A stretch of 39,906 nucleotides of DNA from a virus. Taxonomy: Duplodnaviria; Heunggongvirae; Uroviricota; Caudoviricetes. Location: positions 1 through 39,906 of the IMG/VR virus record IMGVR_UViG_2737471844_000008; one strand, 5' to 3'. The notes beneath the pieces are model-generated. The model searched no databases, had not been told where the DNA came from, and saw only the letters and a list, made by a program, of their open reading frames with translations. This document shows positions 33,757 through 37,971 of this stretch, in pieces (position 1 is the stretch's first letter; each line of letters opens with the position of its first letter). The translations under genes and the position numbers were made by a program.

Positions 33757-34614
33757 ATGCCAGGATTTACAAGTAAATTCATACCAAGAAGAGAATTCAA
33801 GCATAATCCAGAAAGACTAAATGTTATTTCTTCCGGTGGTGGTACTCAAAGTAACGCAATAATCTGCTTAGTACATGCTGGCGTTCTTCCAAAGCCTGAC
33901 ATTATCGTTATGTCAGATACAGAACGTGAGGCAAGTAATGTATTTGAATATCAGAAAAAATATATAGCTCCTATTTGTGAAGATATGGGTGTTGATTACC
34001 TGATTGTTCCTAAAAGTAGATTTGCTACCTACGACATTGATGGGCCTGATCCAGACGTTCCTCTACCTGGATATTTCACAGAATACGAGGGAAGGGATTC
34101 AAAAGGAATGTGCGCTGGAAAGCAACCAGCATTTTGTTCTATAAAGTGGAAAACTGAAGTTATTCAGAGATTTTTAAATGAAAGATATGGAGAGAAGTAT
34201 CTTACAACAAGAGGAGTGGATAGTTGGATTGGGATAAGCATTGAAGAGGCTAAACGAAGAGCGAAATACCCAACTGGCAAGTGGCAGAGGCGCTATCCAC
34301 TTATTGAAATGCTAATGACTAAACAGATGGCAATTCAATGTGTAGAGGATTATGGTCTTCCTACACCACCTGCCTCGCTTTGCTGGATGTGCCCTAACAG
34401 AGATGATGATCTGTGGCTTTATATGAAAAATAACGTCCCATCTGATTTTGAAAGAGCATGTCAGCATGAAAAAGAGATACAAATGAAGTGGCCTCATTTG
34501 TGGCTTACTAAATATGGTGTTCCACTATCTGAGGCACCACTAACACCTAGTGGTGGTAAAAATGCACAAATGGATCTTATACAATTCTGCGATTCTGGAC
34601 TGTGCTTCGTTTAA
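33757..34614 (+). CDS. PAPS reductase-like PP-loop ATP pyrophosphatase family protein with C-terminal Cys cluster (accessory gene)
   Basis: 285-aa ORF; N-terminal PP-loop-like motif (VISSGGGTQSNAI) typical of the PAPS reductase/DndC/BrxP/IbrA superfamily; C-terminal cysteines (CWMC...C...CDSGLC); AT-rich coding sequence; two terminator-like hairpins follow. Confidence 0.8.
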   Translation: MPGFTSKFIPRREFKHNPERLNVISSGGGTQSNAIICLVHAGVLPKPDIIVMSDTEREASNVFEYQKKYIAPICEDMGVDYLIVPKSRFATYDIDGPDPDVPLPGYFTEYEGRDSKGMCAGKQPAFCSIKWKTEVIQRFLNERYGEKYLTTRGVDSWIGISIEEAKRRAKYPTGKWQRRYPLIEMLMTKQMAIQCVEDYGLPTPPASLCWMCPNRDDDLWLYMKNNVPSDFERACQHEKEIQMKWPHLWLTKYGVPLSEAPLTPSGGKNAQMDLIQFCDSGLCFV

Positions 34615-34776: not shown

Positions 34777-34894
34777 GCACTAACAACAGAATAAACACTG
34801 CACTGTGTATTCATTCCAACGAGTGAATACACGGAGCAATGTCGCTCGTAACTAAACAGGAGCCGACTTGTTCTGATTATTGGAAATCTTCTTT

Positions 34895-34921
34895 GCCCTC
34901 CAGTGTGAGGGCAATTTTTTT
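34895..34921 (+). terminator. Terminator-like hairpin immediately upstream of the coiled-coil gene
   Basis: GCCCTC-CAGTGT-GAGGGC stem followed by AATTTTTTT, ending 13 nt before the downstream ATG. Confidence 0.45.
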
Positions 34922-34933
34922 GATGGAGGATAT

Positions 34934-35902
34934 ATGAGTGAAGTAACAGATTTAGTTGTTATTGAAAAAGCAAATGCAATGACTGTATTTCAGTCTGCCG
35001 ACCAGATTGAAGAAATCCTTCAAAAGGTTGAACGTGAAGTTATGTCCTTTGTGCCTGATATCACAACGGCAAAGGGCAGAAAGGAGATCGCTTCTCTGGC
35101 GTATAAAGTTGCGCAGACGAAAACATATCTCGATGGTCTTGGAAAAGACCTTGTTGCTGAACTGAAGGAAATTCCAAAGCTAATTGATGCCAACCGCAAG
35201 ACAGTGCGTGATCGCCTTGATGAGCTGAAATCCAAGGCACGCCAGCCTCTTACTGATTATGAGGAGGAACAGGCACGGATTAAAGCCGAAGAAGAAGCTA
35301 AGGCAGCAGCTGAAGCTCTCGCAAAGCAAATTGAGTCTGACCATGAAATAGCTATTTTGATGGATCGCGAATTTGACCGCCAAAGAGAAGAGGCAAGACT
35401 CAAAGCGGAGCAGGAAAAGCGAGAGCATGAAGAACGCTTAAAAAGAGAAGCTGAAGAGAAAGCCAGAGCAGAAGCCGAAGCAAAGGCAAAAGCCGAAATT
35501 GAAGCAGCAGCAAGGCGAGAAGCAGAAGCTAAGGCCGCAGCGGAACGTGCAGAGCGTGAACGCATTGAAGCCGAGCAACGAGCACAGCGCGAAGCAAAAG
35601 AGGCAGCAGAACGAGCTGAAAGAGAAAAGCAGGCGGCAATTGAAGCAGAACGCCGAAAAGCACAGGAGGAGGCTGAACGAATCCGGCGCGAGGCTGAAGC
35701 AAAAGAGCAAGCCAGAATAGCAGAAGAAAAAAGAATCAAGGACGAAGAAGAGCGTAGAGCAAAGGATAAAGCTCACCGGAAAGAAGTAAATAACAAAATA
35801 CTTGCTGACCTTATCAAGGTTGGCGCATCAGAAGATGTTGCTAAAAATATCATAACAGCCATCGTAAAAGGCAAAGTATTCGCAACAAAAATAACCTACT
35901 AA
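34934..35902 (+). CDS. Coiled-coil protein with long Ala/Glu/Lys/Arg-rich TolA-like helix (unknown function)
   Basis: ATG at 34934 preceded by GGAGGA; the ORF-track start at 34880 is a TTG that would translate the terminator hairpin. About 120-aa N-terminal domain, about 180 aa of EAKA/AERA-type repeats, short C-terminal domain. Confidence 0.7.
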   Translation: MSEVTDLVVIEKANAMTVFQSADQIEEILQKVEREVMSFVPDITTAKGRKEIASLAYKVAQTKTYLDGLGKDLVAELKEIPKLIDANRKTVRDRLDELKSKARQPLTDYEEEQARIKAEEEAKAAAEALAKQIESDHEIAILMDREFDRQREEARLKAEQEKREHEERLKREAEEKARAEAEAKAKAEIEAAARREAEAKAAAERAERERIEAEQRAQREAKEAAERAEREKQAAIEAERRKAQEEAERIRREAEAKEQARIAEEKRIKDEEERRAKDKAHRKEVNNKILADLIKVGASEDVAKNIITAIVKGKVFATKITY

Positions 35903-35926: not shown

Positions 35927-36058
35927 ATGATTTACGCAATCGCGGGAGGCGCTCGCATGGGTGCCTTCCAACTAAATGAATCTTTACTTGAACGAATCAC
36001 CCGTAAATTACGTGACGGATGGAAAAGAGTTGAGGTCTTATTATGCGCAATGAAATAG
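35927..36058 (+). CDS. cIII: CIII-like protein (FtsH/HflB inhibitor), 43 aa
   Basis: Manual translation gives MIYAIAGGARMGAFQLNESLLERITRKLRDGWKRVEVLLCAMK; the central ESLLERITRKLRDGWKR matches the lambda CIII core helix. AGGA Shine-Dalgarno 8 nt upstream. Confidence 0.75.
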   Translation: MIYAIAGGARMGAFQLNESLLERITRKLRDGWKRVEVLLCAMK

Positions 36059-36195
36059 CCATCAATCACCAGATGCTTCGTGCTGCACAGAACAAAGCAG
36101 TAATAGCCAGATTTATTGGTGATTCCAAAATGTGGCTTGAAGCAAATAAAGCGATGAAATCAGCTATCAACCTTCCGTGGTATCGCAGGAAATGA
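36043..36195 (+). CDS. Kil-like small protein (candidate host cell-division inhibitor), 50 aa
   Basis: Overlaps the cIII 3' end in another frame; ARFIGDSKMWLEA resembles the remembered lambda Kil motif (ATFIGDEKMFREA). Weak Shine-Dalgarno. Memory-based assignment. Confidence 0.4.
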   Translation: MRNEIAINHQMLRAAQNKAVIARFIGDSKMWLEANKAMKSAINLPWYRRK

Positions 36196-36270
36196 GTTTT
36201 ACAGATAACTGGTCAGACGAAGAATTCATTCGTCAGATGAAAGAATTAATCGGTAACGAAGGAGATATTC

Positions 36271-36441
36271 ATGTCACTTGCAACCACAGTGAAGGAGAGC
36301 AAGTTACAGAGACGCATGTACACGCAGAAAGCTCTCTGGTATCGCCATAATGGCGACCGCGAAGGAATGCGGGTATGCCTTAATTTGTCCCGAGTCGAAG
36401 TATTAAATCAGCGTTATTTCCTTGGGCCATGTCCATTCTGA
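36271..36441 (+). CDS. Hypothetical 56-aa protein upstream of the annealing-protein gene
   Basis: ATG preceded by a strong AGGAG Shine-Dalgarno at 6-nt spacing; ends 8 nt before the Erf-family gene. Confidence 0.35.
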   Translation: MSLATTVKESKLQRRMYTQKALWYRHNGDREGMRVCLNLSRVEVLNQRYFLGPCPF

Positions 36442-36449
36442 GGTGATTT

Positions 36450-37157
36450 ATGGATTTGAATAAATTCGATGAGCCATTCAGCCCTGAAGATATCGAATGG
36501 CGAATACAGCAAAGCGGTAAAACACGCGATGGCAAAGTGTGGGCTATGGTGCTGGCTTATGTCACGAACCGGGCAATCATGAAACGCCTGGACGATGTTT
36601 GCGGCAAAGCAGGATGGCGCAATGAATACCGCGATATTCCCAACAACGGCGGAGTTGAATGCGGCATATCAATCAAGATTGATTCCGAATGGGTAACCAA
36701 ATGGGATGCTGCTGAAAACACGCAGGTAGAAGCCGTCAAAGGCGGTCGTTCCGGTGCAATGAAGCGCGCTGCCGTTCAGTGGGGAATCGGTCGGTATCTG
36801 TATAACCTTGAGGAAGGTTTTGCACAAACATCTCTCGATAAAAAGCAGGGATGGCACAGGGCAAAACTGAAGGATGGAACAGGATTTTACTGGCTCCCTC
36901 CATCGCTGCCGGGATGGGCAATCCCAGCATCAGATAACAAACCATCACCAGAAAATACCAACCAGAAATCTCCATCGGTTAACTGCGAACAAATCCTGAA
37001 AGACTTCAGCGATTATGCGTCAACAGAAACTGACAAGAAAAAACTCATCGAGCGTTATCAGCGTGACTGGCAATTAATGGCTGGCAACGAGGAGGCGCAG
37101 GCTAAATGCGTTCAGGTAATGAACATCAGAGTTAACGAACTAAAACAGGCGGCATAA
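36450..37157 (+). CDS. erf: Single-strand annealing protein: Erf C-terminal domain joined to a divergent Rad52/Sak-like N-terminal domain
   Basis: C-terminal ~55 aa (EQILKDFSDYASTETDKKKLIERYQRDWQLMAGNEEAQAKCVQVMNIRVNELKQAA) match the P22 Erf C-terminus; the N-terminal domain (KGGRSGAMKRAAVQWGIGRYLYN) does not match the P22 Erf N-terminus. Confidence 0.85.
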   Translation: MDLNKFDEPFSPEDIEWRIQQSGKTRDGKVWAMVLAYVTNRAIMKRLDDVCGKAGWRNEYRDIPNNGGVECGISIKIDSEWVTKWDAAENTQVEAVKGGRSGAMKRAAVQWGIGRYLYNLEEGFAQTSLDKKQGWHRAKLKDGTGFYWLPPSLPGWAIPASDNKPSPENTNQKSPSVNCEQILKDFSDYASTETDKKKLIERYQRDWQLMAGNEEAQAKCVQVMNIRVNELKQAA

Positions 37158-37664
37158 ATGGCAAGCAGAGGCGTAAATAAGGTGATTATCCTTGGTCGGG
37201 TAGGACAAGACCCGGAAGTTCGATACTCACCATCAGGAACAGCGTTCGCTAACCTGACAATAGCCACGTCAGAACAATGGCGAGATAAAAATACTGGCGA
37301 GCAAAAGGAATTGACTGAATGGCATCGTGTTGCTGTATCCGGGAAACTGGCTGAGGTCGTGGGGCAGTATGTGAAAAAAGGTGATCAGATTTATTTCGAG
37401 GGAATGCTGAGAACCAGAAAGTGGAAAGACCAGTCAGGGCAAGACCGTTACACAACCGAGGTTCATGTCGGAATTAATGGCGTGATGCAAATGCTTGGCG
37501 GCATTGGCGACAGCAAACAACAAGCAGCCAGCAGGCAATCACAGAAGCCACAGCAGCAATCATCACCAGCACAACACAACGAACCTCCGATGGATTTTGA
37601 CGACGATATACCCTTTGCACCAGTAACTCTCCCCTTCCCTCGTCACGCTATTCACGCAATTTAA
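37158..37664 (+). CDS. ssb: Single-stranded DNA-binding protein (SSB)
   Basis: 168-aa ORF with an OB-fold N-terminus ([38 protein letters not shown]), Gln/Pro-rich linker and acidic C-terminal tail (DFDDDIPF); start abuts the erf stop. Confidence 0.93.
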
Positions 37665-37677
37665 TCAGGAGAAAATC

Positions 37678-37971
37678 ATGCCAGCGCCTCAGTATGGTGC
37701 GGATGACCCACGCCGCTGTTCCGGCAATTCCGTATCGGAGGTGCTGGATAAATTCAGGAAAAACTACGACCGGATAATGTCGCTACCGCAGGAAACGAAA
37801 GAGGAAAAGGAATTTCGCCACTGTATATGGCTTGCAGAGAAAGAAGAACGCGAGCGAATTTACCAGACATCAATCCGACCATTCCGCAAAGCCACATATA
37901 CCCACTTCCCTGAAATTGACCCGCGCCTGCGTAATTACCGCTCACGCTATGGCGCTATCAGTAATGACTGA
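37678..37971 (+). CDS. Hypothetical protein (97 aa)
   Basis: ATG preceded by an AGGAGA Shine-Dalgarno; no recognised motif. Confidence 0.5.

Follow-up and report, generated by a model that had tools for sequence, protein, structure and literature searches.

The window, by which we mean the whole stretch of 39,906 nucleotides that was analysed, comes from an E. coli podophage or prophage of the P22-like kind, and over its first 25 kb it matches the Escherichia phages vB_EcoP-720R6, CUS-3, Sf101, and others like them at 94 to 96%. The gene under study encodes a 235-residue annealase (single-strand annealing protein, SSAP) and is preceded by conserved early-left genes, with a cIII-like gene also lying upstream. 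Immediately downstream, as the sequence-only reading of this DNA had stated, is an SSB gene whose ATG abuts the annealase TAA and whose product is 100% identical to the HK75 SSB, followed by abc2, the DNA of which is 85% identical to P22 abc2 and 95% identical to HK97. The annealase, SSB, and abc2 genes are contiguous, without a nuclease gene between them, and the same order is found in HK75. A recombination module composed of anti-RecBCD, SSB, and annealase with no nuclease is described as the “HK75 type” (PMC12315714), and it is a lambdoid early-left recombination module of this type that the window carries. The features of the locus are as follows.

36041-36442, plus strand: upstream early-left genes, which are conserved and flank the exchangeable cassette on its left (compared with HK97)
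36043-36195, plus strand: kil-like gene, within the upstream early-left region
36177-36350 and 36271-36441, plus strand: small open reading frames, within the same region
36440-36446, plus strand: ribosome-binding site GAGGTGA, 3 nt before the annealase ATG (read from the sequence)
36450-37157, plus strand: annealase gene, ATG to TAA, 235 amino acids plus stop (open reading frame list)
36450-36917, plus strand: Rad52/Sak-type annealing core, residues 1-156 (Pfam, identity to ul36 Sak, AF2, Foldseek)
36738-36803, plus strand: signature KGGRSGAMKRAAVQWGIGRYLY, residues 97-118, quoted in the sequence-only reading
36918-36983, plus strand: flexible linker, residues 157-178 (AF2, alignment)
36984-37154, plus strand: Erf-type C-terminal domain (CTD), residues 179-235, three-helix bundle (BLASTP, AF2)
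36987-37157, plus strand: DNA common to the window and the 3' end of P22 erf (78.4%, blastn)
37155-37157, plus strand: annealase stop codon TAA (sequence)
37158-37664, plus strand: SSB gene (Pfam SSB, E value of 1.6e-36; NCBIfam TIGR00621)
37599-37661, plus strand: SSB tip DDDIPF (37599-37616), then a 15-residue extension (37617-37661) (SSB alignment)
37678-37971, plus strand: abc2 anti-RecBCD gene (Pfam PF11043, Anti-RecBCD_p2, E value of 4.9e-63)

The annealing core belongs to the Rad52/Sak type. Pfam Rad52_Rad22 (PF04098) covers residues 4 to 136 (profile positions 7 to 153 of 153) with an E value of 5e-26 and a score of 91.9 bits against a cutoff of 20.3; in the Pfam comparison, ERF (PF04404) is absent from the annealase at E values of up to 0.1, and RecT (PF03837) is absent as well. 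P22 Erf matches ERF with an E value of 4.6e-46, and the same profile is matched by the HK97, EhrS_49, GZ7, Morganella, and Yersinia proteins discussed below. The core shares 57.9% identity over 159 residues with Sak (ORF252) of Lactococcus phage ul36, the founding phage Rad52 homolog, and in tblastn residues 6 to 159 are 58.7% identical to Sak of the Lactococcus phages ul36 and Q33 (E value of 1e-54). This likeness includes the KGG.SG.MKRAAVQWG.GRYLY signature, KGGRSGAMKRAAVQWGIGRYLY of the window being identical to ul36 Sak at 19 of its 22 positions, and a W..P.LP.WALP motif carried by both proteins. In an alignment of 34 homologs, most positions of the signature are invariant, the end of the core carries an invariant W148-P151-L153-P154-W156-A157 motif, and the core as a whole (residues 1 to 157) is almost invariant. 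The AF2 model built on these 34 homologs (mean pLDDT of 81.5) shows the strands and helices of the Rad52 fold in the core, and yeast Mgm101 and human RAD52 account for every one of the best 16 Foldseek matches in the PDB (probability of 0.87 to 1.0), with modest TM-scores and modest E values of 8e-4 to 2e-2. The N-domains of the annealase and P22 Erf are only 15% identical in a forced global alignment, and BLASTP with P22 Erf gives no alignment in the annealase N terminus. HMM classification of the N-terminal domain points to Rad52/Sak and to neither ERF nor RecT, and alignment sets it apart from P22 Erf, bearing out the sequence-only reading that this domain does not match P22 Erf and carries a Rad52/Sak-like signature.

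The linker that follows the core is disordered and hypervariable in sequence and length, forming indel-rich, unconserved columns in the 34-homolog alignment, and its residues 163 to 175 have pLDDT values below 50 in the AF2 model. The CTD is modeled as three helices (residues 179 to 192, 196 to 209, and 214 to 234), and a CTD-only AF2 model reaches a pLDDT of 95. In BLASTP, similarity to P22 Erf is confined to residues 157 to 235, which align with P22 Erf residues 134 to 205 at 63% identity (E value of 2e-30); over the last 56 residues, 42 are identical (75%). The homology to the P22 Erf C terminus seen from the sequence alone is therefore confirmed, whereas its description as almost identical was too strong. 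Unlike the core, the CTD is variable among the 34 homologs, with a conserved ...ELKQAA end. Across 40 CTDs taken from both core types, the conserved positions are L183, F186, A190, L199, Y203, W207, Q217, K219, and C220, together with R227, E230, and L231; L183, F186, A190, L199, Y203, W207, and C220 look mostly hydrophobic-core in character. The domain contains 9 K/R against 10 D/E residues, and with a net charge of about –1 it is not basic overall.

No solved relatives came out of sequence searches of the PDB with profiles of the CTD and of the full-length protein, and Foldseek comparison of the CTD model with the PDB gave generic three-helix bundles, all with E values above 1 among the best 50 listed. 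A fold search of BFVD with the same model placed phage annealases at ranks 1, 3, 4, 6, 13, 16, and 35, with TM-scores of up to 0.81 but weak E values of 0.5 to 4; the best-ranked of them are labeled Erf, “recombinase,” SAK3, and RecT. The CTD of λ Redβ (PDB 6M9K) is, like the Erf-type CTD, a tethered C-terminal three-helix bundle of about 60 to 70 residues, but sequence or profile similarity between the two is not detectable: the hhalign probability is 1.2% when the profiles of the two CTDs are compared and 0.2% when the Erf-type CTD is compared with λ Beta alone, 6M9K is absent from the best 50 listed Foldseek matches, and no Erf-type CTD occurs on a Redβ core among 120 Beta homologs. In the Erf-like Gp77 of SECΦ27, the N-domain forms a ring, and the C-terminal region, flexible and peripheral, consists of three helices (PMC13017515). 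Judging from the CTD model, the BFVD matches, and Gp77, phage annealases seem in general to carry a tethered small helical adaptor. A CTD-only search of a 5.8-billion protein set yielded only short fragments from which core types are not readable, and a CTD profile search of 1.84 billion representatives gave only 22 matches, the domain being too short for a database of this size, and missed the HK97-type CTDs.

Essentially the same protein is found as Sf6 gene 28 (gp28), HK75 gp32, and the mEp235 protein (98.6 to 99.6% identity over 235 residues), and the annealase gene is 98 to 99% identical in DNA to those of Sf6, HK75, mEp235, mEpX2, and IME10. ES18 gp49, ST64T orf-235, ε34 gp36, and phage L “Erf” are about 90 to 92% identical over 235 residues, with about 91% DNA identity for the phage L gene. 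All of these equivalents occupy the same module position, and the proteins differ from that of the window by point substitutions only. Their neighborhoods are less uniform; in phages L and ST64T the annealase is followed by abc1 instead of ssb, and Sf6, ES18, and ε34 have an extra endonuclease-like gene between ssb and abc2, unlike the window (PMC2629481). In ul36, sak is also followed by ssb, but the roughly 90-residue C terminus of ul36 Sak is unrelated to the Erf-type CTD, and the host is Gram positive. P22 Erf occupies the same module slot and shares the overall plan (ring-forming core, linker, and small CTD) and a homologous CTD, whereas its core is of the Pfam ERF family rather than Rad52_Rad22, and abc1 rather than ssb lies downstream.

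The segment shared with P22 erf is the only DNA of the annealase gene that matches it. Relative to P22, the left joint falls at codon 180, in the first CTD helix, and the right joint falls at the stop codon; similarity is lost after the stop codon, since ssb in the window takes the place of P22 abc1, and it returns at abc2 (85%). Similarity between phage L and P22 begins at the same codon 180 and continues through abc1 and abc2 at 87%. Compared with HK97, the flanks of the window are 95 to 98% identical as far as the start codon and once more beginning at abc2, and the left flank, at 98.3% DNA identity to the HK97 kil-to-gp42 region, ends right before the annealase start. Between the window and HK97, the annealase and the next gene have been replaced as a cassette. 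The annealase is a lambdoid mosaic product whose joints lie at three places: the start of the gene, codon 180 on the boundary between linker and CTD, and the stop codon. These are classic examples of lambdoid exchange at the borders of genes and domains. They illustrate a textbook lambdoid principle, by which joints at domain boundaries let the core be exchanged and the adaptor domain be kept. The domain swapping within the recombination module that had been suggested from the sequence agrees with the position of the joint at the linker/CTD boundary and with the homologies of core and CTD.

The full-length architecture was found in 5595 matches, with full-length coverage down to 57% identity, in Enterobacterales (Escherichia, Salmonella, Cronobacter, Citrobacter, Klebsiella, Enterobacter, Erwinia, Yersinia, and other genera). 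Among 5426 complete E. coli genomes, 402 (about 7%) carry the gene, which is annotated there as “Rad52/Rad22 family DNA repair protein.” An artefactual chimera generated by assembly was rejected, since the same architecture recurs in hundreds of independent genomes. For five of the six ERF-core annealases with recognisable CTDs, the nearest CTD belongs to a protein with a Rad52 core, the Morganella phage being the exception, as follows.

P22 Erf CTD: closest on a Rad52 core, 94.7% (Salmonella P0021); closest on another ERF core, 43.9%
HK97 Erf CTD: closest on a Rad52 core, 51.8% (P0124); closest on another ERF core, 42.9%
Erwinia phage EhrS_49 CTD: closest on a Rad52 core, 75.4% (Erwinia P0104); closest on another ERF core, 64.9%
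Klebsiella phage GZ7 CTD: closest on a Rad52 core, 68.4% (P0054); closest on another ERF core, 64.9%
Yersinia phage vB_YenM_30.14 CTD: closest on a Rad52 core, 71.9% (P0121); closest on another ERF core, 42.1%
Morganella phage IME1369_01 CTD: closest on another ERF core, 44.6%; closest on a Rad52 core, 42.9%

In addition, the cores of HK97 Erf and P22 Erf are 91.5% identical, and their CTDs share only 41% identity. From the closest-CTD identities across the six ERF-core proteins, it follows that new pairings of core and CTD have arisen at least four or five times; as judged from these comparisons, ERF-type and Rad52-type cores have evidently been exchanged repeatedly in phages of Enterobacterales. 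Where the source of the Rad52-core partner is known (Salmonella and Erwinia), it is the host genus of the phage, and the CTD tends to follow the local phage gene pool.

The product of this gene is therefore very probably an SSAP built from a Rad52/Sak core and an Erf-type CTD. It could instead be regarded as an ordinary full-length member of the Erf family, whose chimeric appearance is artefactual and stems from divergence, annotation, or assembly, and the nomenclature would agree with this: the protein matches PHROG 1097 (phrog_1097) over its full length with an E value of 8e-130, the RefSeq label is “Erf-like ssDNA annealing protein,” and Erf, Sak, and Redβ have been placed in one Rad52-like superfamily (PMC2896510). 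Such an origin is nevertheless extremely unlikely, given the absence of Pfam ERF, the strong Rad52_Rad22 match, the disparity between N-domains (15% identical) and CTDs (75% identical), the sharp DNA joints, and the lack of any P22 Erf alignment outside the C-terminal part. The chimera of Rad52/Sak and Erf-type CTD is real, and it represents a very common kind of lambdoid domain shuffling that is already known. Erf “domain swaps” with a conserved C-terminal 55 to 56 residues were described in the ε34 and phage L genome papers (PMC2629481, PMC8022706), and part of the ε34 paper discusses gene 36 as a named homologue (PMC2629481); Steczkiewicz et al. reported a shuffled C-terminal domain common to distinct SSAP families and considered it a remote relative of the Redβ CTD (PMC8093625). 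The protein is already named “Rad52/22 family” in the GenBank records of mEp235 and mEpX2. Because the case is already documented, the value of the present comparison is mainly corrective, databases labeling the protein “Erf-like” although its core is Rad52/Sak; what it adds to the known swaps is the recurrence of the exchange between core and CTD.

As for function, family knowledge of ul36 Sak, RAD52, and P22 Erf suggests that the core would assemble into ssDNA-binding rings and anneal complementary strands, that the substrate would be ssDNA made by Abc2-modified RecBCD, and that the CTD would lie outside the ring on its flexible linker. By analogy, the CTD would serve as a protein-protein adaptor needed in vivo; the presence of one CTD on two annealing cores makes it the part most likely to carry in vivo partner contacts, which would be relevant to the engineering of portable recombineering proteins. 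The Redβ CTD, a three-helix bundle, binds both λ Exo and the SSB C-terminal tail and is essential in vivo (PMC6393309), and in HK620 the annealase Sak4, found in this same slot, is stimulated by the SSB of its own module, which acts through its final six residues (PMC5928155). On the Redβ model, the CTD would recognise the acidic C-terminal tail common to host and phage SSBs, and the annealase would in this way reach SSB-coated ssDNA. Recognition of the SSB tail, mainly that of the host SSB, is the most plausible role for the CTD, although we propose it tentatively. Several observations count against it. The CTD shows no similarity to the Redβ CTD that sequence or profile comparison can detect, the E values of the Foldseek and BFVD matches are weak, and the domain is not basic overall. 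The SSB of the window phage runs 15 residues past the canonical ...DDDIPF, so that its IPF terminus is masked; this conserved extension is shared by unrelated phage SSB-like proteins. Moreover, CTD subtypes differ by 55 to 70% between phages of different host genera. The SSBs of these host genera presumably end in the same DDDIPF tip, which would therefore not explain the diversification of the CTD. Taken as a whole, the account of a mosaic SSAP with a Sak/Rad52 core, a linker, an Erf-type CTD, and the roles proposed here is probably correct.

The partner of the CTD could also lie nearer to the gene. The sequence-only reading had the conserved C terminus serve the cognate SSB encoded downstream, and a dedicated docking module of this kind would fit the translational abutment of annealase and ssb, the frequency of SSAP-ssb pairs in phages (PMC8093625), the dependence of HK620 Sak4 on the module SSB tail (PMC5928155), and the presence of ssb beside CTD-bearing annealases in Morganella phage IME1369_01 and Yersinia phage vB_YenM_30.14. 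However, in phage L, which encodes the same protein, abc1 and abc2 come next and ssb is missing, P22 has the same CTD subtype followed by abc1 and likewise no ssb, and Erwinia phage EhrS_49 and Klebsiella phage GZ7 have related CTDs with neither ssb nor abc2 nearby; furthermore, the window SSB carries its extension, whereas the Sf6 and ES18 SSBs end at IPF, with annealases that are 92 to 99% identical. The CTD therefore assorts independently of the gene that follows it, and on account of these contexts and the SSB extension the proposal is not supported as originally stated; own-SSB docking is improbable. The partner would not be the cognate SSB in particular; the host SSB tail or another common partner is possible. 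The other neighbor, Abc2, or RecBCD modified by it, might be coupled to the annealase through the CTD, as a counterpart of the contact between the Redβ CTD and λ Exo. Relative to P22, the CTD segment (78%) and abc2 (85%) form conserved islands with a variable gene between them, abc2 accompanies the CTD in P22, L, HK75, Sf6, ES18, and HK97, and the Redβ CTD binds its exonuclease (PMC6393309). Such coupling is a reasonable alternative but an unlikely one; module types with SAP only or with SSB and SAP exist without an anti-RecBCD gene (PMC12315714, Table 1). No abc2 lies within 2.5 kb of the CTD in EhrS_49, GZ7, IME1369_01, or vB_YenM_30.14. Murphy is said to have found in 2000 that Abc2 also works with λ Beta, which is without this CTD, and this would count against the coupling as well.

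It is also doubtful that the CTD is a nucleic-acid-binding, helix-turn-helix (HTH)-like domain or a RecA-interaction domain and not an adaptor for SSB or a nuclease. ul36 Sak reportedly interacts with RecA (Ploquin, in 2008), which would count for such a function, but the C terminus of ul36 Sak is unrelated to the Erf-type CTD. The CTD common to SSAP families has been termed a “DNA-binding domain (HTH)” (PMC8093625); against this, the Redβ CTD does not bind DNA (PMC6393309), Pfam gives no HTH family match, and the conserved CTD positions are mostly of hydrophobic-core character in a domain of slightly negative net charge. A rather unlikely reading of the recurrent exchanges is that the CTD is a portable adaptor that goes with the local phage gene pool, often with the host genus, and not with the annealing core, and that it has a partner that varies between lineages and is neither the phage SSB nor Abc2; a candidate partner under this reading, in HK75-type modules, would be the extended SSB tail (DDDIPF plus 15 residues). 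If the portable adaptor were true, CTD swaps would reprogram the host range of recombineering annealases.

Two resemblances to the Redβ CTD, both unproven, were noted by eye. A W...C...IR...EL pattern can be compared between the two domains, which would pair helices in a different order. The C-terminal ends also look alike, ELKQAA in the window and FLKQKAA in Redβ, where F249 and K253 of the latter motif are SSB/Exo-binding residues.

The Rad52/Sak core of this E. coli phage annealase (window 36450-36917) shares 58% identity with the core of Sak, the Rad52 homolog of Lactococcus phage ul36 (L011:1471-2229). As judged by sequence comparison, this value is unusually high between phages whose hosts belong to different phyla, and it suggests that the core moved by horizontal transfer relatively recently. 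C-terminal variation appears to extend to the Redβ family; in many of the homologs (among database proteins P0167-P0178 and P0209-P0265), the match to λ Beta spans only ~70 to 75% of λ Beta length, despite sizes of 255 to 285 aa, implying that alternative C-terminal domains occur in this family too. In some Redβ homologs, Pfam identifies a phage-integrase domain (PF00589), a sign that they may be deletion fusions. A screen of 120 λ Beta homologs for the Erf-type C-terminal domain detected it in none of them.

In P0001, a 106-aa protein of a 42-kb metagenome contig, a λ N N-terminus (MDAQTRRRERRAEKQAQWKAAN..., Pfam PF11438) is joined in frame to the Erf-type domain; it looks like a prophage deletion linking N to the 3' end of the annealase gene. 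The 1,698-bp record OR850339.1 (hits H49 and H115), titled "Staphylococcus phage SA 1298 Kay," contains an enterobacterial annealase gene whose product is ~90% identical to that of the window, and this record is probably mislabelled or a contaminant.

The final stretch of the phage SSB gene (window 37599-37661) codes for the canonical IPF tip followed by 15 extra residues, and the canonical tip is therefore not C-terminal in this protein. A conserved pattern runs over the tip and the extension, the later portion of which reads [VI][GT]L[PQ][FY]...H.I. This pattern is shared by ε34, g341c, HK75, mEp235, and mEpX2; SSBs of Vibrio phages also have it, as do proteins of ~410 aa from Klebsiella and Acinetobacter phages of the Vequintavirinae type. 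The comparison loci with this pattern are as follows:

L012:2033-2590, tip plus extension
L013:867-2087, tip plus extension
L014:840-2081, tip plus extension

An FDDDIPF motif is described in an SSB-like trigger of Bas52 in a DRT10 preprint (10.64898/2026.04.29.721553). We speculate that PVTLPF in the extension may loosely resemble a β-clamp-binding motif.

In Sf6 (L002), the final 14 residues of the window's SSB (window 37620-37661) recur as the C-terminus of gp26 (L002:4192-4671), a Cys-rich, HNH-like protein, while the gp27 SSB terminates at IPF; this distribution points to insertion of an endonuclease gene into the 3' end of ssb, or to its deletion from there. ES18 resembles Sf6 in having an additional gene between ssb and abc2, and such a gene is also reported for ε34 (PMC2629481).

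Two other genes of the window were noted:

window 33757-34614, PAPS-reductase-like gene of the early-left operon (phrog_424, E value of 4e-36)
window 34880-35902, 340-aa ORF, strongly charged, rich in Glu, Ala, Lys, and Arg, with a coiled-coil look

Neither ORF had a Pfam match. The second is ~95% identical at the DNA level to the Sf6 gene 33 region and matches phrog_1376 and phrog_21365, both of unknown function. A gene with a similar PAPS-reductase-like annotation lies just 3' of the annealase gene in Erwinia phage EhrS_49.
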